The notes beneath the pieces are model-generated. The model saw nothing but the letters and a program-made list of their open reading frames with translations, did no database searches and was not told where the DNA came from. Positions 1 through 12,588 of a stretch of DNA of 12,588 nucleotides are shown piece by piece. Made by a program: the position numbers and the translations under genes. This stretch comes from a virus (lineage: Duplodnaviria > Heunggongvirae > Uroviricota > Caudoviricetes): positions 1 through 12,588 of the IMG/VR virus record IMGVR_UViG_2713896773_000018; one strand, 5' to 3'. Positions within the stretch are counted from its first letter, which is position 1. Each line of letters begins with the position of its first letter.

Positions 1-597
1 TCATTGGGCTGCCTCCTGGCGAAGTTGGGCGGCGCGAATTGCTTTCCACTGCGACCACATTCCGTTGTAATCAGTACCGGAAAGAGTTGAGTTGCGGTAG
101 CCGTCATCAGTGCGCAAACCTTCTAGCGTGGTCTTAGAGATGAATATCTTCTCCATTACCCATTCTTCGAATAAATCACGCTCCGTCGCTTCATCTGGAA
201 TAGCACTTGCCCGTACTTCAGCCAGGAAAGCGTCGGTGGCTGGGGTTTTGTTATCTGACTCCAGCCACTGGTTGTAGTAATAATCGAACATGCCAGTAGG
301 ATAACCACATCCGCTGTGCACGTGGTCTTTCATAGCAGAACCACACATGCAGTAGTCATTGTCAGTATTGCTAATGATGTCGATAAGTTGCTGTGTCCGT
401 TGCTTCAACATCGCATTCTCCGCAGCCAGCGCCGCGCATCTGGCTTTAAGCTCTGATAATCGGTCACTGCATTCCGCCAGCACCACATCAACATCGGTAT
501 CAAGCGGAGGAACATGCATGCTGGCGCGGCCTTTGGTGAAGTCTTCAAGTGCCTTTTCGATTCGTTCTTTCAGTGCTGGCTGTGTATTATTTTTCAT
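1..597 (-). CDS. hypothetical phage protein (198 aa from ATG at 597; Cys/His-rich central segment CMCGSAMKDHVHSGCGYP); nin-region position downstream of ren
   Basis: Long minus-strand ORF with its stop codon at 1-3. The ATG at 595-597 overlaps the stop of the upstream Ren-like gene (ATGA overlap) and is preceded by a GGGGTGAGAG Shine-Dalgarno-like stretch. The upstream GTG at 651 has no usable spacer. No family recognised. Confidence 0.6.
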   Translation of the reverse strand: MKNNTQPALKERIEKALEDFTKGRASMHVPPLDTDVDVVLAECSDRLSELKARCAALAAENAMLKQRTQQLIDIISNTDNDYCMCGSAMKDHVHSGCGYPTGMFDYYYNQWLESDNKTPATDAFLAEVRASAIPDEATERDLFEEWVMEKIFISKTTLEGLRTDDGYRNSTLSGTDYNGMWSQWKAIRAAQLRQEAAQ

Positions 598-935
598 GCT
601 CTCACCCCGTATACGCTTAAAATTCTTCTCATCGCCGCGCTGTTGCGGCACTCCTGGCAGATCACGTTTGCCTCTGTACGCTGCACCAGCTTCGAATTTC
701 CCTTCGGCATAGCCGGGATTGTTTCTGGTGCGTATTTCATGCCGTAATCGGTCAGCCGATAAAGCCGCTGGCCGTATTTTCCTTCGCAGCGGATCAGGCC
801 GTCTGCCAGCAGCGTGCTCACCGTTCCGGATATCTTTTTGGTGTCCATGCCGATAAGCCCTGCCAGTTTGGCGTTGTTCAACCCTGGGTTGTTGCGCAGG
901 GCGGCCAGCACCTGCTCACGGATTGTTATGTTCAT
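594..935 (-). CDS. ren: Ren-like protein (113 aa)
   Basis: Start at the internal ATG 933-935, one nucleotide after the P stop; the ORF-track N-terminal extension overlaps P and is rejected. C-terminus ...CQECRNSAAMRRILSVYGVRA resembles the C-terminus of lambda Ren as I recall it (...KECRQSAAMKRVLAVYGVKR). Position immediately downstream of P matches lambda. Confidence 0.65.
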   Translation of the reverse strand: MNITIREQVLAALRNNPGLNNAKLAGLIGMDTKKISGTVSTLLADGLIRCEGKYGQRLYRLTDYGMKYAPETIPAMPKGNSKLVQRTEANVICQECRNSAAMRRILSVYGVRA

Positions 936-936
936 G

Positions 937-1626
937 TCACACCATCCCGTTCGACTTGTTGCGGTTGTACTTGGCCAGCAGCAGCTGGATCGGCGTCGGC
1001 CCTTGCTCGGCAGCTGGTGCGGCAATAGCCCGGCGTACCGGCGGCACTGGCTTACCCTCGGTGACGCGCCTTTCCCACATGTCCAGCAGATCGCCTGCCT
1101 CGCGTGCCAGTTCACCATGCGTTAACTGGCGCTCGGTGCTGCGGTGGCGCAATTCTACGCAAATGTGGTACATGACCGGCTGCGACCATGGAAATTGCTC
1201 GCTGGAGATGAATTCGAACGAACGATTACGCCATTCCCAGTACTCGGCGATCACCTGGTCAACGTTGACGCCCAGCGCGCCGCCGCTCTGCTTGCACCAG
1301 GCGACGAACTGGCCCGGCGACGGCAGGAATGGGCGCTCCTGGCGGCGGGCAATGCGCATGCCGGCATCGACCTGAGCCATGGTGTGGATCCCGTTCTCCT
1401 GAAACGCCAGCAGCCACTGACGGCGGAATTCGTTCAGGTCTTCCTGGGTGCGGAAGTTCGCCATGCTGGCCGGGAACGCGGCGCGCAGCTCGTTGAACAG
1501 CTTGTTGAATACCTGCGCCACCTGCTCGACCGGCGCGCACTCCTGGTACTGCTCTGGCAGGTTATGGGCCATGCGGCTCATCTGCTCGCGGTCGTGGTTA
1601 CGCATCTGCTCTGCAAGAGATTTCAT
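937..1626 (-). CDS. P: replication protein P-like (DnaB helicase loader), 229 aa
   Basis: Collinear similarity to lambda P from memory along the whole length (e.g. MKSLAEQMRNHDREQMSRMAHNLPEQY... and RRQERPFLPSPGQFVAWC). Start ATG 1624-1626 overlaps the O stop (ATGA) and is preceded by GGGGTGA. Confidence 0.9.
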   Translation of the reverse strand: MKSLAEQMRNHDREQMSRMAHNLPEQYQECAPVEQVAQVFNKLFNELRAAFPASMANFRTQEDLNEFRRQWLLAFQENGIHTMAQVDAGMRIARRQERPFLPSPGQFVAWCKQSGGALGVNVDQVIAEYWEWRNRSFEFISSEQFPWSQPVMYHICVELRHRSTERQLTHGELAREAGDLLDMWERRVTEGKPVPPVRRAIAAPAAEQGPTPIQLLLAKYNRNKSNGMV

Positions 1627-2531
1627 CGGATCACCCCATAGGCCCAGTCAGTGTTGTTGAAGTCCAGATCTGGCTTGACAGCGCGCTGCTCACCTCCGGC
1701 GTTACGCTGCATTGTCAGCTTGTCCCACTGCTTACGCAGGCTTTCGGGACTCAGGATGTTGGTCTGCCAGAAGTGGTGTTTGCTAGCCCAGTCATACAGC
1801 GCGCAGATGTCCTGGTGCGACCGGTTGTCTATCTGGCGCATCAGGCGAACAGTGTTAGACCAGGAGGTCATGTCCGGGGCTTTGCAGGTTGGGTTAATCA
1901 GCTTCACCCTGGAGGAAATCCACTTAGCTGTCTCGAGGTCTTCAGCAGAGCCCCACTTCGCACCGGATGGTGTGTAGACCGCAGCTTCAGGATGAGTTGA
2001 TAAAAATTTCTTCAGACGTGCGTCAGAGGATTCGTCAGAATTCTCGGACGAAGATCTTTTAATACTGTTCTTGTTCTTGTATTGGGTGTCTACCGTTTTC
2101 GGGAAGGTTATTCCTGATTTCGGGAAGGATTTTCCCGTTTTCGGGAATTTTCTTCCCGTTTCCGGTTTGTCTAAAATCCATGCTGAAAGGTCAGTGTTTA
2201 CACCGACGATTTTCATCATGCCCTGCTTCTGTGAAAAGATGATTTTGCGTTCTGCGAGAGACTTAAGCGCGTCCGATACATGCGTATCGCTCAGGCCCGT
2301 AAGCTCGGCAATAACCGTATTTGTCACGCGGTCCTGTTTCTTGTTCCAGCCGTAGGTAAGCCAGATCACCGCCTCAAAACATTGCCATTCCCGGCCTGAC
2401 AGTCTCAGGCGAGGCTTAAGCTGTTGGATCTCGTTAGCGACCTTGGTATACCCGTTCGACAGGTCGGCCATACGACCTCCCGGTTGTTCGGTTTTATTTG
2501 GGAAATTGATTATTTCAGCGGTGTTTGACAT
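1623..2531 (-). CDS. O: replication initiator O-like protein, 302 aa
   Basis: N-terminal region (MSNTAEIINFPNK...LTYGWNK...) resembles lambda O. Start ATG 2529-2531 with GGGAGTAAGT RBS; the upstream in-frame extension from the ORF track is rejected. A central repeated peptide FPKTGKSFPKSGITFPKT is encoded by the DNA iterons. Confidence 0.85.
   Translation of the reverse strand: MSNTAEIINFPNKTEQPGGRMADLSNGYTKVANEIQQLKPRLRLSGREWQCFEAVIWLTYGWNKKQDRVTNTVIAELTGLSDTHVSDALKSLAERKIIFSQKQGMMKIVGVNTDLSAWILDKPETGRKFPKTGKSFPKSGITFPKTVDTQYKNKNSIKRSSSENSDESSDARLKKFLSTHPEAAVYTPSGAKWGSAEDLETAKWISSRVKLINPTCKAPDMTSWSNTVRLMRQIDNRSHQDICALYDWASKHHFWQTNILSPESLRKQWDKLTMQRNAGGEQRAVKPDLDFNNTDWAYGVIR
2045..2160. other. 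phage origin of replication (ori-lambda-like): three 21-bp-spaced iterons with internal dyad symmetry plus an adjacent AT-rich stretch, inside the O gene
   Basis: TCGGGAA(GG) recurs at 2099, 2120 and 2141, exactly 21 bp apart, each followed by an inverted TTCC(C/T)G arm (CGGGAAGGATTTTCCCG, CGGGAATTTTCTTCCCG). The flanking 2045-2090 segment is AT-rich (cttttaatactgttcttgttcttgtatt). Lambda ori has the same layout within O. Confidence 0.7.
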
Positions 2532-2616
2532 ACTTACTCCCGTTACTTGCCGTAACACAGTGTGATAAGGGCCTTTGAAGTTACCGCTTCAAGGGCTTTT
2601 TCTTTTCTTGTGCCTC

Positions 2617-3159
2617 TCATATAACCCCCAGCATCGATGTAACCATCGTCATCAGCGGTCCTACCTGCTCCGGCATGAGGCGAAACAATGACGCTATGCC
2701 CTCGCTTACCTCCTTCATTTTCTGGTGCTCAGGCGCGTTCAGGAGAACGGCTTGCTTTGCTTCTGAACATTCCTTCATGGCAGATGCGATCAGCGACATG
2801 GTGTCGTTCTGCGGCGCCAGGCGTGTACGAAACTCAACAGGAAGAACAGCCATGATTGCCGGGGTCAGTTCTCTAACGTTCTCGCGGTACTGATCGGAGT
2901 CGAAGCGGTTATCCAGAAAGCGAAAAAGTTTCTGGCGCGCCCTGCTGATGTCTTCTGGGAAGCTGATGGCGGTACCGCCCTGCTCCCGGTATTCGTTGAT
3001 GATCAGCGCTGACACTACGTCCTGATTGTCCAGGGACGACGACCATGCACGGACCGCATCGCGGATTTTGTCGTGACCTGGCTCCGCCTTAGGTTGAGCG
3101 CGGTTTATCATCGCTCCCGGGTGTATTCCGGTATTGTGTTGATACGCAAGTGAATGCAT
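2617..3159 (-). CDS. CII-position regulatory protein, YdaT / CP76-type (180 aa)
   Basis: ATG at 3157-3159 with AAGGGA RBS. Lies between cro and O where lambda has cII, but is twice the size of CII. Segments IINEYREQGG... and RELTPAIMAVLPVEFRTRL resemble Rac prophage YdaT as I recall it. Family assignment is from memory and unverified. Confidence 0.5.
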   Translation of the reverse strand: MHSLAYQHNTGIHPGAMINRAQPKAEPGHDKIRDAVRAWSSSLDNQDVVSALIINEYREQGGTAISFPEDISRARQKLFRFLDNRFDSDQYRENVRELTPAIMAVLPVEFRTRLAPQNDTMSLIASAMKECSEAKQAVLLNAPEHQKMKEVSEGIASLFRLMPEQVGPLMTMVTSMLGVI

Positions 3160-3189
3160 TGCTTTCCCTTTCGTGGTTAGAGCCGCCGG

Positions 3190-3411
3190 TTAGGCGGCAA
3201 AGATACCTGGATATAGAACTTCGCGAGGAAGTCCGGTTACTTCTTCGTATTTACGCATTTTTGTTACTGGAAGGCTGCCACCTCGCTTTTTAAGCATATT
3301 GATGGCCTGAGGCGTTACGCCGACCTTTTCAGCAAGCACCTTTTGAGAGCCGCCCACTGCATTAATGGCTTTCTCAAGCGGGGTGCTGGCGTTGGATTTT
3401 TTGTTGATCAT
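3190..3411 (-). CDS. cro: Cro-like HTH regulator (73 aa)
   Basis: First gene divergent from the repressor. HTH segment QKVLAEKVGVTPQAINMLKKRGG. ATG at 3409-3411 with a GGAG RBS. Confidence 0.8.
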   Translation of the reverse strand: MINKKSNASTPLEKAINAVGGSQKVLAEKVGVTPQAINMLKKRGGSLPVTKMRKYEEVTGLPREVLYPGIFAA

Positions 3412-3432
3412 GTTTTGCTCCGCTCATGTGTA

Positions 3433-3506
3433 ATCAACACCATGTTAATTCATGGCGTGGATTAAATCAACATTATGGTGATGGAAAAAATCCACATGTT
3501 GTTTAC
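3433..3506. promoter_or_regulatory. OR-like operator cluster: three 17-bp sites of form ATC[AC]ACA-N3-TGnTnAn between cro and cI
   Basis: Site A 3433-3449 ATCAACA CCA TGTTAAT; site B 3466-3482 ATCAACA TTA TGGTGAT; site C 3490-3506 ATCCACA TGT TGTTTAC. The same half-site recurs in the OL region at 5458-5541. Confidence 0.65.
3442..3470 (-). promoter_or_regulatory. candidate PR promoter for cro (minus strand): -35 TTGATT (3465-3470), -10 TAACAT (3442-3447), 17-bp spacer
   Basis: Hexamers read on the minus strand; they overlap operator sites A and B as PR overlaps OR1/OR2 in lambda. The -10 is a weak match, so the exact hexamers are uncertain. Confidence 0.4.
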
Positions 3507-3528
3507 CATGCATGGAGCGGAGGGTTTT

Positions 3529-4248
3529 ATGAGCAGCATTTCTGAAAGAATTAAATTTTTACTGGCAAGGGAAGGCTTGAAGCAGCGGGATTTGGCTGAG
3601 GCTTTGTCGACTAGCCCACAGACCGTTAACAACTGGATAAAAAGAGACGCGTTAAGTCGTGAGGCGGCGCAACAAATATCTGAAAAATTCGGTTATTCTC
3701 TTGACTGGTTATTAAATGGAGAGGGTTCTCCAAAGAAGGATCTGGAGAGCAACATCCCGCCAGAGTCTGAGTGGGGAACTGTCGACGCTTGGGACAAAAA
3801 TACCCCCCTACCTGACGATGAGGTGGAAGTACCGTTTCTGAAGGATATCGAGTTTGCGTGTGGTGATGGACGAGTACACGATGAGGATCACAACGGTTTT
3901 AAATTGCGCTTTTCAAAAGCAACGCTCCGTCGAGTTGGAGCTAACACAGATGGGTCTGGCATCCTGTGTTTCCCTGCTACTGGCGACAGCATGGAACCTG
4001 TGATACCGGATGGTACGACTGTAGCCGTCGATACGAACAACAAACGCATAGTTGATGGGAAACTGTATGCCATTGGTCAGACAGATGGCGGGAATGGTCA
4101 ACTCAAGCGCATTAAACAGCTGTATCGTAAGCCAGGTGGGAAGCTGATCATCCGCAGTTACAACAACGACTCCTACCCAGACGAAGAGGCTGATATTGAT
4201 GATGTCGAGATAATTGGCCGTCTCTTCTGGTACTCGGTATTGCTGTAG
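3529..4248 (+). CDS. cI: CI-like prophage repressor (XRE-type HTH + S24 LexA-like autopeptidase), 239 aa
   Basis: N-terminal HTH (RDLAEALSTSPQTVNNWIKRD). C-terminal S24 signatures GDSMEP (catalytic Ser) and GQLKRIKQL (Lys). The ATG at 3529 has a GGAGCGGAGGG RBS; the upstream ATGs at 3475/3481 lie inside operator site B and lack an RBS. Confidence 0.9.
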   Translation: MSSISERIKFLLAREGLKQRDLAEALSTSPQTVNNWIKRDALSREAAQQISEKFGYSLDWLLNGEGSPKKDLESNIPPESEWGTVDAWDKNTPLPDDEVEVPFLKDIEFACGDGRVHDEDHNGFKLRFSKATLRRVGANTDGSGILCFPATGDSMEPVIPDGTTVAVDTNNKRIVDGKLYAIGQTDGGNGQLKRIKQLYRKPGGKLIIRSYNNDSYPDEEADIDDVEIIGRLFWYSVLL

Positions 4249-4294
4249 CGGTGGCCTGATGAGACGTTTTGGTGAAAGCATATAAGGACTGTTG

Positions 4295-5161
4295 ATGGAA
4301 AACACTGGCTTACACGATGTTAATTTTTCACTTAGATATGACGGTTTGGATGCTGAAAAGCATGAGATTGAACTTTCTTCGCTCGGTGAATCGCTAAAGG
4401 GATTTTCGAAGATATTAGCTACAGCTGGAACCTTCGCATTAACCCAAAAGTACTCGCGAAGCACCTCAACTCAAGAGGTTAAAATTTACGCTACCGAAGC
4501 TAGGGCCAATTGTTTTTCTCTTGATACTATCATGAATTTTATCAGTCAGTCTCAATTGTTCTCAGGGTCTGCGGGGGCTATACTTGGCGCATTAGTGCCT
4601 TATATCTTCGCTAAAAACTCGCAGAAGAAAGAGGAAATGAAATACCTAAAAGAAGCACTTGAGAAGGCAATTGAGGCCCTCGGAAATAAAGATAAAGATA
4701 CCATCTCAGGTCTAATCTCAGTGATTGACAAGATGGCTAGTGAGTTACGCCCATCAGTTAGACAGGCAGTTTCCCCCATCGGTACCACCTGTAATAAGAT
4801 AAGCGTCACACCGGGGAATGGTTTCAAGCCTGCTGTAATTGATGAGCAAGATAAAGCAGTAATAGACCAGTTGGACGACGACGAAGTTCTTGGCTTAAGG
4901 GAGTATCGAATCTTCCTTACTGAATTCGACGCTCACCGAATGACCGCTAAAGTCATTATAGAAGGTGATGATTCAGATAAGCGCATCTCAGCACAAATAA
5001 GCGATCCATCTGCTTCAAAGGCAGACAACCCGTATCTCATTTCACTTAGTCGTTTTCTGTCAACGGGTCTAAGTCATGAGTCAGCGGTAAAAGTAACTGC
5101 CAAAGCAGCAGTTAGAAAAGGGGCTATTAGTAAACTTTTCATAGTTGATATTGAGCTTTAA
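4295..5161 (+). CDS. hypothetical protein (288 aa) in the rex/immunity-moron position; one short hydrophobic stretch, no recognised domain
   Basis: ATG at 4295 with AAGGA RBS (the ORF track starts at a TTG at 4292). Immediately downstream of and co-oriented with cI, followed by a terminator. AT-rich: about 38% GC in a hand-counted 130-nt sample. Hydrophobic stretch [17 protein letters not shown], then a K/E-rich helical segment. Confidence 0.8.
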
Positions 5162-5164
5162 CAA

Positions 5165-5187
5165 CCGGCCACCGCGCCGGGTTTTTT
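5165..5187 (+). terminator. rho-independent terminator ending the cI operon
   Basis: CCGGC-CACCG-GCCGG stem-loop followed by TTTTTT, directly after the stop at 5159-5161. Confidence 0.7.
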
Positions 5188-5191
5188 GTGC

Positions 5192-5401
5192 CTACTTCAC
5201 AGCTTTACTACCCTTCCTGACTATCTCAGCTGCATCCCTGTTCACACCCTTACCTATCACGTTTCCCGTTTCCTTCCGGTACCGTTCCAGCTTGTCGATG
5301 ATGTTTTGCTGGGTCATAGGTAAATCTGCCAGTGACAACTCCATGACCGCCCGCCCCATGGCGTGAACCATCATGTTCACTCTTTCTTCATCCAAGTCCA
5401 T
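5192..5401 (-). CDS. hypothetical small protein (69 aa), convergent with the cI operon
   Basis: Strong RBS AAAGGAGTGGGTA before the ATG at 5399-5401. Its upstream region is the AT-rich operator-bearing segment 5402-5500. No family recognised. Confidence 0.6.
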   Translation of the reverse strand: MDLDEERVNMMVHAMGRAVMELSLADLPMTQQNIIDKLERYRKETGNVIGKGVNRDAAEIVRKGSKAVK

Positions 5402-5457
5402 TACCCACTCCTTTTTGATGTTTTTTTCAGCATATCACTTATGCCACCAAAAAATAA

Positions 5458-5542
5458 ATCAACATAAAAATCAACAGTAAACGATTAAATCAACAAAATA
5501 AATCCACAAGGTGTTGACCTACAAATCCACATGATGTTTAAT
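5458..5542 (+). promoter_or_regulatory. OL/PL-like region: operator half-site array plus candidate PL (-35 TTGACC 5514-5519, -10 TTTAAT 5537-5542, 17-bp spacer)
   Basis: ATCAACA at 5458, 5470 and 5489; full sites ATCCACA AGG TGTTGAC (5502-5518) and ATCCACA TGA TGTTTAA (5525-5541). The promoter hexamers sit inside these two sites, as in lambda OL1/OL2. Confidence 0.6.
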
Positions 5543-5588
5543 TACTCCATCGAAACGAAACATCGACAGCTGAGCGAAGTTAGCCAGC

Positions 5589-5619
5589 GGCGGACAGCAA
5601 GTCGCCTGCTTTTTAACAA
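5589..5619 (+). promoter_or_regulatory. candidate nutL-like antitermination site: hairpin (5589-5606) followed by boxA-like TGCTTTTTAACAA (5607-5619)
   Basis: TGCTTTTTAACAA differs at one position from the E. coli rrn boxA core TGCTCTTTAACAA as I recall it. It lies about 40-70 nt downstream of the predicted PL start, preceded by a GGCGG/UCGCC stem. Confidence 0.4.
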
Positions 5620-5843
5620 CATGCAAAGTCGGAACAGCACTCAGTAATCCTGTTTAGACCCCAACGTACAAATTCGGCGCAGCACCGGGCGCGATCCGGT
5701 CGGTGTGAGGCTACCCCCTCGCGAGAGCGATAAAGGCGTGGGAACGGGCAACACTGGCTGGATGAGAGGTGCGAAGCGCAAACAGATTTATTCCAGTCCA
5801 TTCGAAGTTGAGTGGGCTGGGCTGAATCACAAGAGGATTTTTT

Positions 5844-6056
5844 ATGACTCAGACATACATTCCGGCGTGTTTAAGAGACCTTCCTAAGAAGCGTCAGAAG
5901 CCACGCAAACAGGCGATTAAAGAAGCGCAAGTGGAAGTTCTGAATAAGGCAATCGCATCGATAAAAGACGATATGCGTGCGTTCAAAACAGAAGAGCAGC
6001 GTCGCGGTCATTACCAGGCGATCAGCACACTCTCACAGATTCGTGATGAGTTGTAG
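5844..6056 (+). CDS. small basic protein (70 aa), first gene of the PL operon (N position); function unassigned
   Basis: Strong RBS AAGAGGA with a 6-nt spacer. Basic N-terminal segment LPKKRQKPRKQAIK. No clear arginine-rich motif of the lambda N type, so an antiterminator role is positional inference only. Confidence 0.6.
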   Translation: MTQTYIPACLRDLPKKRQKPRKQAIKEAQVEVLNKAIASIKDDMRAFKTEEQRRGHYQAISTLSQIRDEL

Positions 6057-6079
6057 AAGCTGATAGATAAAGCATTTCT

Positions 6080-6097
6080 CCCGCATCAGCGGGTAAC
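6080..6097 (+). repeat. copy 1 of a 17-bp direct repeat CCGCATCAGCGGGTAAC (hairpin CCCGC-ATCA-GCGGG)
   Basis: Identical 17-mer at 6081-6097 and 6303-6319, each just upstream of a gene's RBS. Confidence 0.8.
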
Positions 6098-6113
6098 TAA
6101 GTGGAGAGTACGT

Positions 6114-6302
6114 ATGCACAAGTGTCAATTCTGTGGGTACTTTCTGGCATCTGAAGAGATGCAGAGAATATCTGTAAACATGGTTGGCAGGCCTTACAAC
6201 ATCTGCATTCCATGCTCAGAAAAGTACAAAAAGAAAGGCCTGTGGGATTCGGCAAAAAACGATATCGACTGGAAATCACTTCCATGCGTCGATGAGACAT
6301 AA
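6114..6302 (+). CDS. small zinc-ribbon-like protein (62 aa; CxxC...CxxC)
   Basis: RBS GGAGAG with a 5-nt spacer. Cys pairs CQFC and CIPC about 24 residues apart. AT-rich. Flanked by the 17-bp direct repeats. Confidence 0.6.
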   Translation: MHKCQFCGYFLASEEMQRISVNMVGRPYNICIPCSEKYKKKGLWDSAKNDIDWKSLPCVDET

Positions 6303-6319
6303 CCGCATCAGCGGGTAAC
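6303..6319 (+). repeat. copy 2 of the 17-bp direct repeat CCGCATCAGCGGGTAAC
   Basis: Exact match to 6081-6097; begins one nucleotide after the stop of the 6114-6302 gene. Confidence 0.8.
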
Positions 6320-6335
6320 GACAGAGGGTAAGTCA

Positions 6336-7004
6336 ATGATTCGTCTTAACAACGAAATTAAAAATCAGCTATGCCATAACCTGCTTCTCGCATCCCCATT
6401 GTTTGAGAAAGCGAAAGCTGCGGTTAATGAGAGGGCGAAAATTGTTGAAGAAATTCGACAGGCATTGCTCAAGCAGGAAAACACTAGCGATGAGCAAATA
6501 ACTAAGGCTCGGGAAGATTTCAAAGATAACTCCTTCATCAAGATGCAGGTCGGCGCTAAAACTGCAACTTTAAAGGTCATTATTAATGGTGAGTATCACG
6601 AATTAGCCAGGAACGGTTTGGATCATCGCTATCGCCACCGTGGAAAACATATTGGTAAGCACGATCTTGAAAGCGACCTGTTCTTCGGAGCTTCCTTCGC
6701 GCCTGTAATTGATTCGGGTTTCGTTCCTGAAAGTTACAGCACGCTGAAGAAAGTTGGAAAATTACACGACCGACTCACTGAATCGACGGTAACCATCAAC
6801 GTTCTTTACGATGAAGTTGATGCCTTCCAATTGCAGGTTAAAGGTGCTCTAACCAAAGTCTCAACTGTTAAAAAACTGGCTGAGATGTGGCCTGAGGCAG
6901 TGCCATATTTGCCTGAGGTGGAACGCCGTGAAGCGACCAGCACCGCACTTGCCATTCCCGTTGAAACGCTAAACGCCCTTTGCGGCATACCAAAGAATGA
7001 ATGA
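6336..7004 (+). CDS. hypothetical protein (222 aa), AT-rich accessory gene in the ral/sieB-equivalent position
   Basis: RBS GAGGG. A long ORF with no internal stops in AT-rich DNA, followed by a strong terminator. No family recognised. Confidence 0.8.
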   Translation: MIRLNNEIKNQLCHNLLLASPLFEKAKAAVNERAKIVEEIRQALLKQENTSDEQITKAREDFKDNSFIKMQVGAKTATLKVIINGEYHELARNGLDHRYRHRGKHIGKHDLESDLFFGASFAPVIDSGFVPESYSTLKKVGKLHDRLTESTVTINVLYDEVDAFQLQVKGALTKVSTVKKLAEMWPEAVPYLPEVERREATSTALAIPVETLNALCGIPKNE

Positions 7005-7026
7005 CCCGCTCCGGCGGGTTTTTTAT
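7005..7026 (+). terminator. rho-independent terminator
   Basis: CCCGC-TCCG-GCGGG stem-loop followed by TTTTTTAT, immediately after the TGA at 7002-7004. Confidence 0.8.
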
Positions 7027-7165
7027 CGGCCATACATAGGCAGATTTTCGAGTCTGCCCATTTATGACAACCGGCGGCCATCCACCGCCCATTGAAACAC
7101 TGAATAAATGCGTTGAAGTCTTGTATTAACCGTTCGGCGGCGCGGCCTTAAGCGCGGAGATGATT

Positions 7166-7675
7166 ATGACTCTTATCGAATTGACCAAAAAGAAAATGGC
7201 AATTGAAGCCGAACTGGCTCAGTTGAAGGCGAAGTTTGTTGATGACACCTCACGCATCGGTAAAGAGCTGATTGCCGTGTCTGAAGGTATCAACCAGGCC
7301 AATAAAGGCCTAACGGTTGAGATGGTTAGGCATGGCATGACGATCATTAACTTCGGTGACCCGAAACAAAGCATGGAGCGGCGCGGGTGTGTTGAAGACG
7401 CGATTAACGACATTGCGTCGGGGTTCAACCGTCTGAGCGAGCGTTATTTTGGCACAAAAAACTACGCCCACTGGAGCGATCAGCGTGAAGACCATCGCTA
7501 TGGATATGGCCCTAAACACGGCTCTATCTGCTTCAAGATCGGTTTAACTGGCACCGCACTTAATAAGCTGGCAAGCGGCGGGTTGAGTGATTACGACGCT
7601 GAATGCGCTATCTACTGCCTGATGAACATTGACGCCATCAATGCGGCAAACGACAAAGCCCGGGAGGCATCATGA
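7166..7675 (+). CDS. hypothetical phage protein (169 aa)
   Basis: GGAG at 7156-7159 favours the ATG at 7166 over the one at 7160. The stop overlaps the next ORF's start (ATGA). Confidence 0.7.
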   Translation: MTLIELTKKKMAIEAELAQLKAKFVDDTSRIGKELIAVSEGINQANKGLTVEMVRHGMTIINFGDPKQSMERRGCVEDAINDIASGFNRLSERYFGTKNYAHWSDQREDHRYGYGPKHGSICFKIGLTGTALNKLASGGLSDYDAECAIYCLMNIDAINAANDKAREAS

Positions 7676-7830
7676 CAGTCACCCATAACGGAAAGAAGTA
7701 CACCGCCAAAAAGCTCAACGATAACGAGTGGCAGCTGACGTCCGTATCGGCACCGCGTGAAAAGCTGACGCTTAACCGCTGGCATATGAAGCTGGCTGGC
7801 CTCCTGGAACAGGTTGAGGTGAAGGTATGA
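7672..7830 (+). CDS. small hypothetical protein (52 aa; MTVTHNGKKYTAKKLNDNEWQLTSVSAPREKLTLNRWHMKLAGLLEQVEVKV), not in the supplied ORF track
   Basis: Strong RBS GGGAGG 5 nt upstream of the ATG at 7672. ATGA overlaps with both the upstream and downstream genes suggest translational coupling. Confidence 0.55.
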   Translation: MTVTHNGKKYTAKKLNDNEWQLTSVSAPREKLTLNRWHMKLAGLLEQVEVKV

Positions 7831-8333
7831 TGCGAAAGCACAAGTTGCCAAGTGCTGAGGAGATAGATTCCTTGCTGGATTACAACCCTGAAACCGGAGT
7901 ATTTACGTGGAAAGTGACGAAATCAGGATGGGTTGTAAAGGGGCGGCCTGCTGGTTCAAAAAACAATAATGGCTATCTCCGAGTTGGTATTGGAAGAAGG
8001 CACTACTTCCTTTCTCGAATCGCATTTTTCTTATGCACCGGGGAATCACCTGAAGAAGTAGACCATATCAATGGTGACAGAACAGATAACAGGGCGTGCA
8101 ACTTAAGAGCCGCAAGCCGTCATGAAAACTGCCTCAATAAGTCGGTAAGAAGCGACAGCAGGACTGGTGTAAAGGGCGTCTCATGGCGACCGGATGTTAA
8201 AAAATGGTCTGCACGATCAACTGATTCATCGGGGAAGAGAGTGTTTTTAGGTTACTACCGCACCATCAGAGATGCGGTGGCTGTCCTTAATGATTTTCGG
8301 AGAGAACAGCATGGTGAGTTTGCAAAAAATTAG
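7827..8333 (+). CDS. HNH homing endonuclease with C-terminal AP2-type DNA-binding domain (168 aa)
   Basis: HNH motif EEVDHINGDRTDNRACNLRAASRHENCLN. AP2-like segment GVKGVSWRPDVKKWSARST...KRVFLGYY. RBS GAGGTGAAGG. Confidence 0.85.
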   Translation: MMRKHKLPSAEEIDSLLDYNPETGVFTWKVTKSGWVVKGRPAGSKNNNGYLRVGIGRRHYFLSRIAFFLCTGESPEEVDHINGDRTDNRACNLRAASRHENCLNKSVRSDSRTGVKGVSWRPDVKKWSARSTDSSGKRVFLGYYRTIRDAVAVLNDFRREQHGEFAKN

Positions 8334-8544
8334 CAGCAACTTGCACTACGGCACCACCCCGCTCATTCGCCAGTGCGTCACGCCAGGCATGATGGCATTG
8401 CATGAAGGCCGCACCTATCGCGTCTCAGCAGTCATTCAGGAGCGCAAATGGGTGTACCTGCACACCGATGCAGAAATTATCCGCCTCAGTGACTGCGTGA
8501 TTGACGTCCTTCTGGACGGTCACGGAAACCCTATCCAGCACTAA
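8311..8544 (+). CDS. hypothetical protein (77 aa), start overlapping the 3' end of the HNH gene by 23 nt
   Basis: RBS GGAGAG with a 6-nt spacer before the ATG at 8311; the ORF-track start at 8272 has no RBS. Confidence 0.5.
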   Translation: MVSLQKISSNLHYGTTPLIRQCVTPGMMALHEGRTYRVSAVIQERKWVYLHTDAEIIRLSDCVIDVLLDGHGNPIQH

Positions 8545-8613
8545 CCACCCTATTCATCCGATCGGCCTGGCTTCTGCGGGCGGGATCTGCACATCCAAAT
8601 TTCAGGAGAAACC

Positions 8614-9582
8614 ATGAGCGAAGTAACGGACTTAACTGTCATCGAAATCAAGCCGGAACAGGCCCCAGTGCTTTACGTAGCGGGCGGCCTTGACGCGTAC
8701 CTTGAGCAAATCCGCCAGGCTGTAAACGAAGTGCCGGACCTGTCCACGAAGAAAGGCCGTGACCGTGTCGCCTCTCTGGCGGCGCAGGTATCCCGCAGCA
8801 AGACAGCAATCGAAAAGCCGGGCCGTGAATACCTTAAGCGCCTGAAAGAGGCTGTGCGTCCGGCTGAGGCCGAAATTAAGCGTTTCGTTGATGCTTGCGA
8901 CGAGCTACGTGATGCCACCCGCCGCCCACTCACCGAATGGGAAGCCGAGCAGGAGCGCATCAAGGCTGAAGAAGCCATGAATGCGCTGCACGCCGAAGCG
9001 CTGGAGATGAACGAAGAGTTTGACCGCCAGCGCGCCGCTCAAATCGAAGCGGACCACGAAATGGCTCTGCTGATGAATGAGAAGTTTGACCGTGACCGCG
9101 AAGAGCAGCGCCGCCTGGCAGAACAGGCTCAGCGCGAACGTGACGAACGACTGAAGCAGGACGCGGCAGAACAAGCCCGCCGCGATGCCGAAGCGATGCA
9201 CAAAGCAGAGATTGAAGCCGCAGCGCGCCGTGAAGCTGAAGAGAAAGCACGTGCAGAGCTGGCTGAACGCCAGCGCGTCGAAGCGGAACAGCGTGCAGCT
9301 CGCGAGAAGCAGGAAGCAATCGCAGAAGAAAAACGCAAAGCGCAGGAAGAAGCAGATCGCATCAAGCGCGAAGCTGAAGCGAAAGAGAAAGCCCGTCTGG
9401 CCGAAGAGCAGCGCAAAGTTGAAGAAGAAGCGCGCCGCGCCGCAGACAAAGAGCACCGCCGCACCGTCAACCGTCGCGTCATCGCCGACCTTATAGCTCA
9501 GGGCATCCCCGAAGAATTCGCGCAGAAAGCACTGCTGGCGATCGCTGGCGGCAAAGTGCAGGACGCGCACATCAAATATTGA
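8614..9582 (+). CDS. hypothetical protein (322 aa) with a long Ala/Glu/Arg/Lys-rich low-complexity central region
   Basis: RBS AGGAG. Globular-looking N-terminus of about 100 aa, then about 180 aa of ERKA-rich repeats (e.g. AEEKRKAQEEADRIKREAEAKEKARLAEEQRKVEEEARRA), then a short C-terminal tail. Located immediately upstream of gam. Confidence 0.75.
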   Translation: MSEVTDLTVIEIKPEQAPVLYVAGGLDAYLEQIRQAVNEVPDLSTKKGRDRVASLAAQVSRSKTAIEKPGREYLKRLKEAVRPAEAEIKRFVDACDELRDATRRPLTEWEAEQERIKAEEAMNALHAEALEMNEEFDRQRAAQIEADHEMALLMNEKFDRDREEQRRLAEQAQRERDERLKQDAAEQARRDAEAMHKAEIEAAARREAEEKARAELAERQRVEAEQRAAREKQEAIAEEKRKAQEEADRIKREAEAKEKARLAEEQRKVEEEARRAADKEHRRTVNRRVIADLIAQGIPEEFAQKALLAIAGGKVQDAHIKY

Positions 9583-9589
9583 GGCAACC

Positions 9590-9871
9590 ATGAACGCATA
9601 CCTCACTTACGACCGAATCGAAGATCGGCGCTGGGTTGAGCAGCAGCTCACCGACGAGAAGGAGAAGTGGATCGACAACCGGGCGAAAGAACTGATCGCC
9701 ATGTTCCCGAAATATGCTCTGCAAATGAGTAGCCTGTTTCTCCCAAAAGAAGCGCAAATGGCACTAGTCGGTGAAAAGGCAGAGGAAGCCTATAACGACT
9801 ATGTCACACGCATCTGTTACGACCGCGCCGAAGAAGAGTGGGATCGCCTTCATCCAACCTGCCCATTTTAA
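9590..9871 (+). CDS. gam: Gam-like host-nuclease (RecBCD) inhibitor, 93 aa
   Basis: N-terminus MNAYLTYDRIEDRRW... resembles the short form of lambda Gam (MNAYYIQDRLEAQSW...) from memory. Position directly upstream of the annealing-protein and exo genes. RBS GAGG. Confidence 0.55.
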   Translation: MNAYLTYDRIEDRRWVEQQLTDEKEKWIDNRAKELIAMFPKYALQMSSLFLPKEAQMALVGEKAEEAYNDYVTRICYDRAEEEWDRLHPTCPF

Positions 9872-9880
9872 GGAGGGGCT

Positions 9881-10798
9881 ATGAGCTTAACCCTTGTTGA
9901 TTTCGTCAAACAACAGGAGCCGCTTTTCATTAAGGCGGCCACAGACGAGCGGATGGTGTGGGCGAAGGAAAGCCAGTTCGCCATCCAGCTATTTCAGAAC
10001 AATGACTACCTCGCGAAAGTCGCATTCCAGAACCAGACCAGCACGCAGAACGCAATAATCAACGTTGCGGCTATCGGTATTTCGCTAAACCCAGCTCAGA
10101 AGCTGGCTTACCTGGTTCCGCGTAAAGGGGCAGTTTGCCTCGACATCAGTTACATGGGCCTGATGCACATTGCGCAGCAGTCTGGCGCCATTAAATGGTG
10201 TCAGTCGGCAATTGTTCGCAGAAACGACCAGTTCCGCCGCGAAGGGCTCGATAAGCCGCCGGTCCATATCTACAACGACTTCGATACCGAAGAGCAGCGC
10301 GGGGACATCGTAGGGGCATATGTAACGGTAAAAACTGACGATGGTGATTACCTCACCCATACGATGCGCATCGATGCCATTTACTCCATCCGTGACCGGT
10401 CTGAAGCATGGAAGAAGTACAAATCTGACAACAGTAAAAAGTGTCCATGGGTCACTGACGAAGAACAGATGATCCTCAAAACAGTCGTGAAGCAGGCAGC
10501 AAAATACTGGCCTCGCCGTGAGCGCCTGGACGCCGCCATAGACCACGTTAACACCGAGGGCGAAGAAGGTATCAACTTTACAGCAGAGCGTCAGCCTGAG
10601 CGCGATATAACGCCGCTTAGCGAAACCACGCAGAAAGAGATAAACGACCTGCTTGTCTCTTTGGATAAGACATGGGATGACGATCTTCTCCCTCTCTGCT
10701 CACGCATTTTCAAACGCCCTATCACGCAGCCAGCAGACCTGACAGAGCTTGAAGGTGTTAAAGCTCTCGGGTTCCTCAGACAAAAGGCGGCAGCATGA
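9881..10798 (+). CDS. single-strand annealing protein: RecT-like core with a Red-beta (Bet)-like C-terminal tail, 305 aa
   Basis: Perfect RBS AGGAGG. The C-terminal ~70 aa ([13 protein letters not shown]...[16 protein letters not shown]...[12 protein letters not shown]) closely match the lambda Bet C-terminus as I recall it. The N-terminal ~230 aa look RecT-like rather than Bet-like. Stop overlaps the exo start (ATGA). Confidence 0.8.
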
Positions 10799-11475
10799 CA
10801 CCAGAAATTATCCTGGCCCGGACCGGCATTGACGTAACCACTATCCAGCAGGGCGACGAGGCGTGGCACCGGCTGCGCCTCGGCGTTATCACCGCATCTG
10901 AAGTTCACAACGTCATTTCCAAGCCCAGATCTGGGAAGAAGTGGACAGACATGAAAATTTCCTACTTCCACACCCTACTCGCCGAGGTATGCACCGGCGT
11001 AGCGCCAGAGGTTAACGCCAAGGCGCTGGCCTGGGGGAAGCAGTATGAAGAAGACGCCCGCACCCTCTTCGAGTTCACCACCGACGTGAAAGTCACGGAG
11101 TCTCCGATCTTGTTCCGTGACGAGAGCATGCGCACCGCGTGCTCACCTGACGGCCTTTGCAGTAACGGATTCGGCCTCGAATTGAAATGCCCGTTCACCT
11201 CCCGCGACTTCATGAAATTCCGCCTTGGCGGTTTCGAAGCCATCAAGTCTGCCTACATGGCCCAGGTGCAGTTCAGCATGTGGGTGACCGGGAAAGACGC
11301 CTGGTTCTTTGCCAACTACGACCCGCGCATGAAGCGCGAAGGTATTCACCACGTCGTCGTTGAGCGGGATCCACAGTACATGACCAATTTCAACGAAATG
11401 GTGCCGGAGTTCATCGAGAAGATGGACGAGGCGCTGGCGGAGATCGGCTTCAGGTTCGGGGAGCAGTGGAAATGA
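10795..11475 (+). CDS. exo: lambda-type 5'-3' exonuclease (Red-alpha / YqaJ family), 226 aa
   Basis: Near-collinear, high-identity match to lambda Exo from memory ([14 protein letters not shown]...[24 protein letters not shown]...[31 protein letters not shown]...[10 protein letters not shown]). Confidence 0.93.
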
Positions 11476-11518
11476 AACGCACACCATTTTACCGCAGGCC
11501 CGGGCGAACCGGGCAATC

Positions 11519-12097
11519 ATGAAACGCCTGGACGATGTTTGCGGCAAAGCAGGATGGCGCAATGAATACCGCGATATTCCCAACAACGGCGGAGTTGAAT
11601 GCGGCATATCAATCAAGATTGATTCCGAATGGGTAACCAAATGGGATGCTGCTGAAAACACGCAGGTAGAAGCCGTCAAAGGTGGTCGTTCAGGTGCAAT
11701 GAAGCGTGCTGCCGTTCAGTGGGGAATAGGTCGGTATCTGTATAACCTTGAGGAAGGTTTCGCACAAACATCTCTCGATAAAAAGCAGGGATGGCACAGG
11801 GCAAAACTCAAGGGTGGAACAGGATTTTACTGGCTCCCTCCATCGCTGCCGGGATGGGCAATCCCAGCATCAGATAACAAACCATCACCAGAAAATACCA
11901 ACCATAAATCTCCATCGGTTGACTGCGAGCAAATCCTGAAAGACTTCAGCGATTATGCGTCAACAGAAACTGATAAGAAAAAACTCATCGAGCGTTATCA
12001 GCGTGACTGGCAATTAATGGCTGGCAACGAGGAGGCGCAGGCTAAATGCGTTCAGGTAATGAACATCAGAGTTAACGAACTAAAACAGGCGGCATAA
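11519..12097 (+). CDS. Erf/Rad52-superfamily-like protein, apparently N-terminally shortened (192 aa)
   Basis: C-terminal ~55 aa (EQILKDFSDYASTETDKKKLIERYQRDWQLMAGNEEAQAKCVQVMNIRVNELKQAA) closely match the P22 Erf C-terminus as I recall it. Rad52-like motif AMKRAAVQWGIGRYLY at residues ~60-75 leaves too little upstream sequence for a complete annealing domain. Weak RBS. Confidence 0.55.
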   Translation: MKRLDDVCGKAGWRNEYRDIPNNGGVECGISIKIDSEWVTKWDAAENTQVEAVKGGRSGAMKRAAVQWGIGRYLYNLEEGFAQTSLDKKQGWHRAKLKGGTGFYWLPPSLPGWAIPASDNKPSPENTNHKSPSVDCEQILKDFSDYASTETDKKKLIERYQRDWQLMAGNEEAQAKCVQVMNIRVNELKQAA

Positions 12098-12319
12098 ATG
12101 GCAAGCAGAGGCGTAAATAAGGTGATCATTATTGGTCGCCTTGGGCATGATCCAGAAATCAGAGATTCATTCAACAAGGTTGCAAAGCGCGTTCCGGCAT
12201 TCAAAGGAATCCTCAACGAATGGGATTCACTCGTTGCTCTGTTGAAGTCTGAAATGAAGATACACGGAAACAAAGCACCAGAGACTTACAGAAGAATCAG
12301 CGAGCTACGCAAGGACTAA
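12098..12319 (+). CDS. 73-aa ORF whose first 22 codons are an ssb 5' remnant (MASRGVNKVIIIGRLGHDPEIR) fused to unrelated sequence
   Basis: The first ~66 nt resemble the start of E. coli ssb at protein and DNA level, from memory. After codon 22 no frame continues SSB-like sequence, so this is a recombination junction rather than a frameshift. Whether the product is functional is unknown. Confidence 0.45.
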   Translation: MASRGVNKVIIIGRLGHDPEIRDSFNKVAKRVPAFKGILNEWDSLVALLKSEMKIHGNKAPETYRRISELRKD

Positions 12320-12320
12320 C

Positions 12321-12381
12321 GCCTCACACTCGATGAGGCCTGTACATATCTGATAGAGCCGCTATATGGCGGTTTATTTTT
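12321..12381 (+). terminator. two hairpins after the ssb-remnant ORF; the second (12358-12381) is terminator-like with a T-tract
   Basis: Perfect 6-bp inverted repeat GCCTCA-N7-TGAGGC at 12321-12339. Then CCGC-TATATG-GCGG followed by TTTATTTTT. Confidence 0.45.
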
Positions 12382-12396
12382 GCCTGGAGAATTAAG

Positions 12397-12588
12397 ATGA
12401 CCGATACCAGCCTGATTCCTGAGAAAGAAGTGATGAACAAGCTCGGTGTTTCATCACGTCAGACAATCTGGAACTATACCAAACGGCACGGATTTCCGAA
12501 GCCAGTCAGAACCCACCCCAAATCATACCTTCGTGAAGCTGTTGAAGGGTGGATTCTTAACGGTGGCGTTAATCAGAAATGCTCCTGA
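12397..12588 (+). CDS. xis: excisionase / AlpA-family small HTH protein (63 aa)
   Basis: RBS GGAGAA. Motif EKEVMNKLGVSSRQTIWNYTKRHGFPKPV is typical of the AlpA/Xis family. Sits at the distal end of the early-left operon where xis-int lie in lambdoid phages. The stop is at the last three bases of the window. Confidence 0.75.
   Translation: MTDTSLIPEKEVMNKLGVSSRQTIWNYTKRHGFPKPVRTHPKSYLREAVEGWILNGGVNQKCS

Follow-up and report, generated by a model that had tools for sequence, protein, structure and literature searches.

The 12,588-nucleotide (nt) stretch of DNA considered here, hereafter the window, comprises positions 1 to 12,588 of the IMG/VR virus record IMGVR_UViG_2713896773_000018 (Caudoviricetes) and covers the early region of a lambdoid prophage of the phi80/HK225 type. 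We analysed two adjacent genes of its early leftward (PL) operon, one for a predicted zinc-ribbon protein of 62 amino acids (aa) and one for a 222-aa protein of the Nmad5 family, which an initial annotation made from the sequence alone had taken for a possible anti-defence or defence pair. The two genes are two independent cargo units in a slot that begins at a short non-coding linker and ends at a tL1-type terminator, and of this anatomical part we are highly confident. With a modest degree of preference we extend it to a fuller reading, in which they are two separate single-gene cargo cassettes that sit in tandem in one hypervariable slot where the PL operon begins, and whose products would be binders of host or defence components; that the specific role is counter-defence is suggested by analogy and is proposed tentatively.

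We scanned IMG/VR for exact matches to the 17-nt core of the linker, CCGCATCAGCGGGTAAC, and obtained at least 119 contigs; the slot counts given below refer to the matches listed. In window coordinates, the slot is made up of the following features.

6069-6097, + strand: linker copy 1, AAGCATTTCTCCCGCATCAGCGGGTAAC, with the hairpin CCCGC-AUCA-GCGGG, at the 5′ junction of the slot.
6114-6302, + strand: zinc-ribbon cargo gene, 62 aa, with the pattern CxxC-23-CxxC and a Shine-Dalgarno sequence; orphan family phrog_19863.
6303-6335, + strand: linker copy 2, that is the core CCGCATCAGCGGGTAAC with the canonical spacer and ribosome-binding site (RBS), GACAGAGGGTAAGTCA, up to the ATG.
6336-7004, + strand: Nmad5-family cargo gene, 222 aa, with a Shine-Dalgarno sequence; Pfam PF18757.
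7003-7026, + strand: intrinsic terminator of the tL1 type, which closes the slot, found by scanning and folding.
7004-7135, + strand: conserved backbone segment after the slot, the putative 3′ junction of cassette exchange, found by alignment and present in 110 of the 119 listed contigs.

Both open reading frames (ORFs), 6114-6302 and 6336-7004, had been called in the initial annotation and are real, each with its Shine-Dalgarno sequence and a match in PHROG. The linker is about 46 nt long: it opens with a short hairpin, which a spacer and then an RBS follow, and it ends at the ATG of the cargo gene. Its 17-nt core occurs twice in the window (6081-6097 and 6303-6319), against 0.02 expected by chance. 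The 29-nt linker was found in 118 of the 119 listed contigs, and conservation was at least 90% from AAGCATTTCT onwards, across hairpin and RBS and as far as the cargo ATG (118 contexts). Precisely, among the 112 ORFs that followed the linker in the listed contigs there were at least 47 unrelated families, usually with one gene per contig and with two linkers in only 2 of the 119 contigs, which bears out the earlier view of the two genes as accessory cargo in a hotspot. Nmad5 occupied the slot in five listed contigs, the phi80 'N' in four and the zinc ribbon in one. The linker is also found 5′ of the phi80 'N', HK639_44 and HK225 genes. As for the other slot families, 43 of the 45 scanned gave no Pfam match, and the PHROG families that were matched have no known function.

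Several of the slot cargoes are small proteins that are Cys-rich or strongly acidic; the 80-aa phrog_35236 cargo (locus L016, 3223-3465), for instance, is itself Cys-rich (CDVCGKAC ... HAKCE). The phi80 'antiterminator N' (L005, 3119-3469) is a 98-aa protein of phrog_25091 without an arginine-rich N-terminus, and it shares the slot with 46 further families unrelated to it, so that there is reason to doubt that it is N. Neither of the two cargo proteins of the window has an arginine-rich N-terminus, and the linker hairpin was seen only in the PL operon and not near PR.

At its 3′ end the slot is closed by a terminator hairpin (7003-7020) with a 7-pair stem, five pairs of which are G-C, and a 4-nt loop, followed by TTTTAT; its folding energy is -16.2 kcal/mol, and it overlaps the stop codon of the Nmad5 gene. 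The same segment lies 3′ of HK639_44, of the phi80 'N' (where it is annotated as tL1A), of the HK225 cargo gene and of other unrelated genes; the terminator aligns with the annotated HK639 terminators and with phi80 tL1A, and its stem is preserved through differing sequence in phi80 and HK225. The terminator and about 130 nt beyond it are backbone sequence of the tL1 type and are not owned by the cassette. The strong terminator that the initial annotation had given to the two genes as their own is therefore a real hairpin, but one that is common to phages carrying other genes. In 108 of the listed IMG/VR contigs the post-terminator segment began 133-933 nt after the linker (median 286). The segment 7004-7135 also holds a 26-nt stretch, TTATGACAAYCGGCGGCCATCCACCG, invariant bar one C/T position and with a GGCGG-N7-CCGCC hairpin; as HK639 has not preserved the 21-codon ORF that starts there, a signal in RNA or DNA seems likelier than a peptide. 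An Rfam match to isrK over the terminator scored 21 bits against a cut-off of 50 and was rejected as due to chance, and the Rfam scan of the whole window gave no near-threshold match.

When the region 5400-7300 was compared by BLAST with the related loci L001-L025, the alignments broke at 6069-6097, at 6303 and at 6998-7004, and linker copy 1 was a mosaic breakpoint in all the related loci compared. Copy 1 keeps the canonical 5′ half of the linker and copy 2 keeps the canonical 3′ half with the RBS, hence the zinc-ribbon gene looks like a 222-bp unit inserted with duplication of the 17-bp core, a direct repeat that flanks the unit on both sides.

We considered whether the two genes could be a pair, that is, a joint two-component anti-defence or defence system of the zinc ribbon and the 222-aa protein with its own terminator. 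The genes are indeed adjacent, on one strand, 33 nt apart and before a single terminator, and the exact arrangement recurs in L008/L018, L010, L023 and L024, of which L023 is 100% identical to the window over 5400-7300. Moreover, the gene next to the exact zinc-ribbon protein was Nmad5 in three of ten contexts, as compared with five Nmad5 genes in the 119 listed slots. Nevertheless, the zinc-ribbon gene was present in 8 and this Nmad5 gene in 8 of 5426 complete E. coli genomes, with an overlap of 0, and no contig among the 119 listed from IMG/VR carried both. The exact Nmad5 protein was found in ten distinct contexts, with the zinc ribbon upstream in two (L008 and L010) and a 70-aa gene, a 113-aa gene or nothing upstream in the remaining ones. 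In the other contexts the gene that followed the exact zinc-ribbon protein encoded the 80-aa phrog_35236 protein (three) or a phrog_13002 protein (four), and in L135 the zinc ribbon is followed by a 68-aa gene, so that it precedes at least four unrelated gene families. In phage mEp213 a zinc-ribbon homologue stands directly after N, with neither the linker nor Nmad5. Furthermore, no such partner was seen in the seven annotated phage neighbourhoods of Nmad5 homologues that we inspected by hand (homologues were found in 188 phage records), and the terminator, as said, belongs to the backbone. We therefore give the two-component system very little credence. The contexts point to independent assortment of two separate cargo genes, not to a functional pair, and this part of the initial annotation is not supported; the refuting condition that it had named, that the two genes never co-occur, does not strictly apply, as a few contigs share the arrangement.

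Taken singly, the 62-aa protein matched phrog_19863 with an E-value of 5e-44. Its CxxC...CxxC signature, pointed out in the initial annotation, was confirmed: C4, C7, C31 and C34 were invariant in the full-length homologues, and one N-terminally cut cluster was without the first CxxC. The AlphaFold2 (AF2) model had a predicted local distance difference test score (pLDDT) of 82.6, and the solved folds closest to it were L24e-type zinc ribbons, found as weak matches by Foldseek in the PDB (E 0.2-1). On its two conserved CxxC knuckles and on this model, the protein qualifies as a predicted zinc ribbon. A profile search collected its relatives into 16 clusters at 90% identity, all of one narrow enterobacterial family from E. 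coli and Providencia prophages, and no cluster had an informative name. There was no Pfam match, a sequence search of the PDB returned only noise, and no model of the NCBIfam library matched either this protein or the 222-aa one. Between the zinc-ribbon gene and its 68%-identical mEp213 homologue, the proportion of nonsynonymous differences (pN) was 0.20 and that of synonymous differences (pS) was 0.82, the latter saturated (pN/pS about 0.25), hence the gene is under purifying selection.

The zinc-ribbon gene was PL-proximal in every context examined. In mEp213 (L157, 2165-2689 and 3650-4150) the zinc-ribbon homologue lies directly 3′ of one N-like gene and a homologue of the 70-aa protein of the window lies directly 3′ of a second N-like gene, so that both small proteins are N-proximal in a phage without the linker. 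We also considered lambda Ral, which is likewise a small Cys-containing protein (66 aa, four Cys) with its gene close to where the PL operon begins. Ral lies beyond N, whereas the zinc-ribbon gene of the window lies before the first terminator, and as a relative Ral was rejected, the best BLASTP pairwise alignment covering only 10 residues (E = 0.055). The zinc-binding protein ECs_2282, which adjoins Nmad5 in strain 1218KP, was rejected as well: it is unrelated to the zinc-ribbon protein and is encoded on the opposite strand.

The 222-aa protein matched the Pfam family Nmad5 (PF18757) over its full length, residues 2-219 on positions 1-206 of the 206 of the profile, with 108.5 bits against a cut-off of 27 (E = 6e-31), and phrog_1965 with 2e-49; identical RefSeq copies are already called 'Nmad5 family putative nucleotide modification protein'. 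The earlier statement that neither protein belonged to a recognisable family thus stands for the zinc ribbon, as regards Pfam, and falls for the 222-aa protein; likewise, the homology and structure searches which the initial annotation had recommended gave Nmad5 for the latter and only the weak L24e-type matches for the former. The AF2 model of the Nmad5 protein had a pLDDT of 88.8 and a predicted template modelling score (pTM) of 0.83. In BFVD its fold retrieved only other Nmad5 or unnamed proteins, with the models of which it agreed; neither a sequence search of the PDB nor the comparison with solved folds gave a match. The protein would be a helical hairpin that carries a small, conserved module at its C-terminus.

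An exhaustive profile-free search returned 132 Nmad5 representatives, nearly all of them single-domain and of about 160-290 aa, and between the window protein and its homologues from isolated phages identity was no higher than 23-33%. When 62 diverse homologues were aligned, W185, P186 and N213 were invariant, and G85, T177, L181, P193, L212, G217 and P219 nearly so, the six from T177 to P219 being at least 90% conserved. The conserved C-terminal motif T-x-x-K-L-x-x-x-W-P-E ... L-N-x-x-x-G-x-P is present in the window protein. This 62-sequence alignment showed no Asp, Glu, His, Cys or Lys conserved in the manner expected of an active site.

We then weighed the possibility, carried by the Pfam and RefSeq names, that Nmad5 has a part in modifying nucleotides or DNA bases, for instance as an accessory subunit of hypermodification that shields phage DNA from restriction. 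Nmad5 appears in the thymidine hypermodification cassette listed for M6/SN1-like Pseudomonas phages, where its neighbours are aGPT-Pplase1, a kinase, a radical S-adenosylmethionine (radical-SAM) enzyme and a pyridoxal-phosphate (PLP) enzyme (PMC9476957), and in Pantoea phage MED16 a queuine tRNA-ribosyltransferase-like gene is found about 3 kb from the Nmad5 homologue. The label 'nucleotide modification' derives, however, from a prediction on neighbourhoods such as the M6/SN1 cassette and not from an assay. We found no aGPT-Pplase, 5-hydroxymethyldeoxyuridine (5-hmdU) DNA kinase, pyrimidine hydroxymethylase, PLP or radical-SAM enzyme among the Pfam-scanned ORFs of the window, and the annotation of the whole prophage of E. 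coli 730V1, which carries Nmad5, lists none either; the neighbourhoods of most of the homologues inspected contain no modification genes, and neither a conserved catalytic-type residue nor an enzyme-like fold was seen. Since conserved catalytic-type residues and modification partners are missing and the neighbourhoods elsewhere are unrelated, Nmad5 is probably a non-enzyme, and probably not a DNA-modifying enzyme in this prophage; a role in modification is in our judgement improbable.

The neighbourhoods bear also on another explanation, namely that Nmad5 is a non-essential helper of replication or recombination: a loader or modulator of the replisome or of the Rec module, or an inhibitor of a host nuclease. 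In lambdoid prophages the gene is upstream of kil, gamL, recT/recE and exo, and in a Guernseyvirinae phage, eiAU and ECO1230-10 the homologue is beside genes for helicase-primase, exonuclease, single-stranded-DNA-annealing protein or Holliday-junction resolvase. Homologues also occur among small early genes. Other settings fit less well: tail genes in a Vibrio phage, adjoining lysis genes in MED16 and, in Dhillonvirus, a lone opposite-strand gene within the head module, where its deletion leaves the phage viable. In the slot, Nmad5 alternates with 46 unrelated small genes in the listed contigs, which makes a core replication role a poor fit. We regard the helper role as unlikely.

Experimental data on the family come from the Tmn defence system. 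Dhillonvirus phages that escape Tmn carry K216E or K296E in Nmad5, and putting back the wild-type residue restores Tmn sensitivity; deletion of nmad5 gives no Tmn escape, and attempts to clone the gene failed, apparently because of toxicity (PMC11846954). In the 253-aa Nmad5 of Dhillonvirus phage Ioannina, residue 216 is the lysine in TTDTK-LIKAWPE; its counterpart in the alignment is K180 of the window protein (STVKK-LAEMWPE), within the best-conserved motif of Nmad5. K180 would then be the putative equivalent of the Tmn-escape lysine, as mapped through the Ioannina sequence. The Tmn data point to a protein that touches host immunity by a binding surface and not as an enzyme. Like Dhillonvirus nmad5 and nearly all of the 132 representatives, the window gene encodes a stand-alone protein of about 200-250 aa; it differs from the Dhillonvirus and M6/SN1 genes in being cargo of a lambdoid PL slot and not a gene of the head module or of a hypermodification cassette.

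The expression of the two genes would depend on their place in the operon, for which the following features of the window were considered.

3411-3190, - strand: cro, then a YdaT/cII-like gene, the replication genes O and P, and others.
3475-4248, + strand: cI-type repressor gene.
4292-5161, + strand: DUF7946/DUF7947 gene, 289 aa, with its own terminator at 5165-5180.
5513-5541, + strand: PL promoter, TTGACC-17-nt-TTTAAT, as read from the sequence; it drives the operon that includes both genes.
5542-5592, + strand: conserved 51-nt start of the PL transcript, in 96 of the 119 listed contigs.
5844-6056, + strand: optional first PL gene, 70 aa, basic, isoelectric point (pI) 9.8, phrog_5305.

PL coincides with the annotated pL of phi80 at both -35 and -10, and the surrounding stretch, 5400-5761, shares 90.6% identity with phi80. 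The 51-nt start sequence lies 223-1197 nt upstream of the linker in the listed contigs (median 438). It is also found in phages with other immunity regions, e.g. HK639, and right after it there is a hairpin with a U-run (5589-5606) that overlaps boxA of the annotated phi80 nutL. From there the order of the operon is the 70-aa gene (in only 11 of the 119 listed contigs, and missing from several Nmad5 loci), the zinc-ribbon gene, the Nmad5 gene, the terminator, a 171-aa gene and a 52-aa gene; then come an HNH endonuclease, a KilR-like gene and a homologue of phi80 agt/Mog, and lastly, among the genes listed, gamL, recT, a YqaJ exonuclease and a Rad52-like gene. The initial annotation had placed the two genes in a position equivalent to that of ral and sieB. 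In lambda, ral and sieB lie beyond N; both genes of the window are upstream of the first PL terminator, and hence in the place of the phi80 and lambda N and not in that of ral and sieB.

This place is relevant for the proposal, made in the initial annotation, that one or both genes provide superinfection exclusion, protecting the lysogen in the manner of sieB or rexAB. Prophage early regions are known for such genes, and lambda sieB is in the PL region. The two genes, though, lie between a repressed PL and tL1, and a search for a sigma-70-like promoter across 5545-7000 found none, so that they should be silent in a lysogen; a role in defence of the lysogen thus seems unlikely, and with no PADLOC match for either protein we hold it highly improbable. 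The DUF7946/DUF7947 gene is better placed: it comes directly after cI, so that it is probably co-transcribed in the lysogen, and its product is a better prophage-defence candidate than that of the zinc-ribbon or Nmad5 gene. It has a rexAB-like position, and a weak PADLOC match of the DUF7946 + DUF7947 protein (4292-5161) was to the candidate system PDC-S42 (1e-5).

If the two genes are, as we favour, separate stacked cassettes, the linker and tL1 flanks would supply the homology by which cargo is swapped by recombination, and tandem units would be gained or lost when one linker copy recombines with another. If lambda N and the phi80 'N' are a guide, genes before tL1 would be transcribed from PL, with no need of antitermination, once repression lifts or DNA enters the cell, and would be silent in the lysogen. 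Each protein may then work by itself, as an immediate-early product without enzymatic activity that binds a component of the host or of a defence system, in host takeover or in counter-defence, and this is the weakest step of the mechanism.

Several points weigh against this reading. The excess of Nmad5 after the zinc ribbon corresponds to a Fisher p of about 0.016, and a loose association of the two genes may exist; the contexts are not phylogenetically independent, and because they share ancestry we read the excess as history and not as function. That the linker is perfectly conserved could be due to a function as RNA or in binding a protein, and homologous exchange at the linker is suggested by the breakpoints. 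The immediate-early timing assumes termination at tL1 in vivo and a lambda-like antitermination. As for counter-defence, which position and analogy suggest, neither protein matched PADLOC-DB at E <= 0.01 and a scan of 45 slot families gave no match to any known anti-defence protein.

The organisation of the slot has partial parallels. In T4-type phages, promoter/stem-loop cassettes (PeSLs) shuffle early genes, and the slot resembles them in having a short repeated stem-loop element 5′ of each cargo gene. Phage accessory regions have conserved flanks around variable genes, which are often counter-defence genes, and variable hotspots of this type are described as enriched in such genes (Silas et al., bioRxiv 10.1101/2023.04.06.535777). 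The likeness to accessory regions consists in the conserved flanks around diverse, small, mostly unannotated cargo; unlike both accessory regions and PeSLs, the slot has as its 5′ flank a non-coding linker of about 46 nt without a promoter and as its 3′ flank a terminator, and it normally holds a single gene. Among the closest phages, phi80 (JX871397), HK639 and HK225 have the identical linker 5′ of the cargo and the same terminator and post-terminator segment, but their cargo differs, being the 98-aa 'N' in phi80, a 149-aa gene in HK639 and the zinc ribbon with a phrog_13002 gene in HK225; the window has two cargo units and the extra 70-aa gene.

A bolder version would make the linker and tL1 a dedicated cassette-exchange site at the first position to be transcribed in phi80/HK-type lambdoid phages, integron-like but without an integrase, serving at least 47 families, almost all of them unannotated, of immediate-early counter-defence genes. 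Nmad5 would in this case be a non-enzymatic inhibitor or decoy of a host immune sensor, with the lysine motif as contact surface, and the zinc ribbon a second, independent inhibitor that can be stacked before any cargo. We consider this version possible but doubtful.

In the remainder of the window, a gene for an HNH_3 + AP2 endonuclease (phrog_99; 7827-8333, + strand) separates the 52-aa gene from the KilR-like gene. L023 and L024 share it with the window, whereas the equivalent junction of L025 lacks it, which fits the insertion of a mobile homing endonuclease. A conserved 69-aa gene (phrog_3975; 5192-5401, - strand), found also in HK225 and many related loci, lies between the terminator of the DUF7946 gene and PL. 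The two cargo genes had been described as AT-rich. At 45.5% GC against 51% for the window this is so to a modest extent, and it does not set them apart from their neighbours (cI 47.8%, the DUF7946 gene 42.1%, the 70-aa gene 47.4%).

The two genes are not a new two-gene system, and the Nmad5 family is already named. Of more interest than a gene pair is the slot itself, which the linker bounds, which takes a single gene and for which there are dozens of cargo families; a limited literature search found no description of it. For the Nmad5 family, the only experimental link is to immune evasion (Tmn) and not to DNA chemistry, and its name looks misleading for most members. The annotation of the phi80 'N' merits re-examination, as it is one of several alternative cargoes. 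The slot contains dozens of small proteins without annotation that are probably among the first to be made after infection or induction and, being findable with a 17-nt probe and the terminator, it is a practical source of candidates for counter-defence screens.

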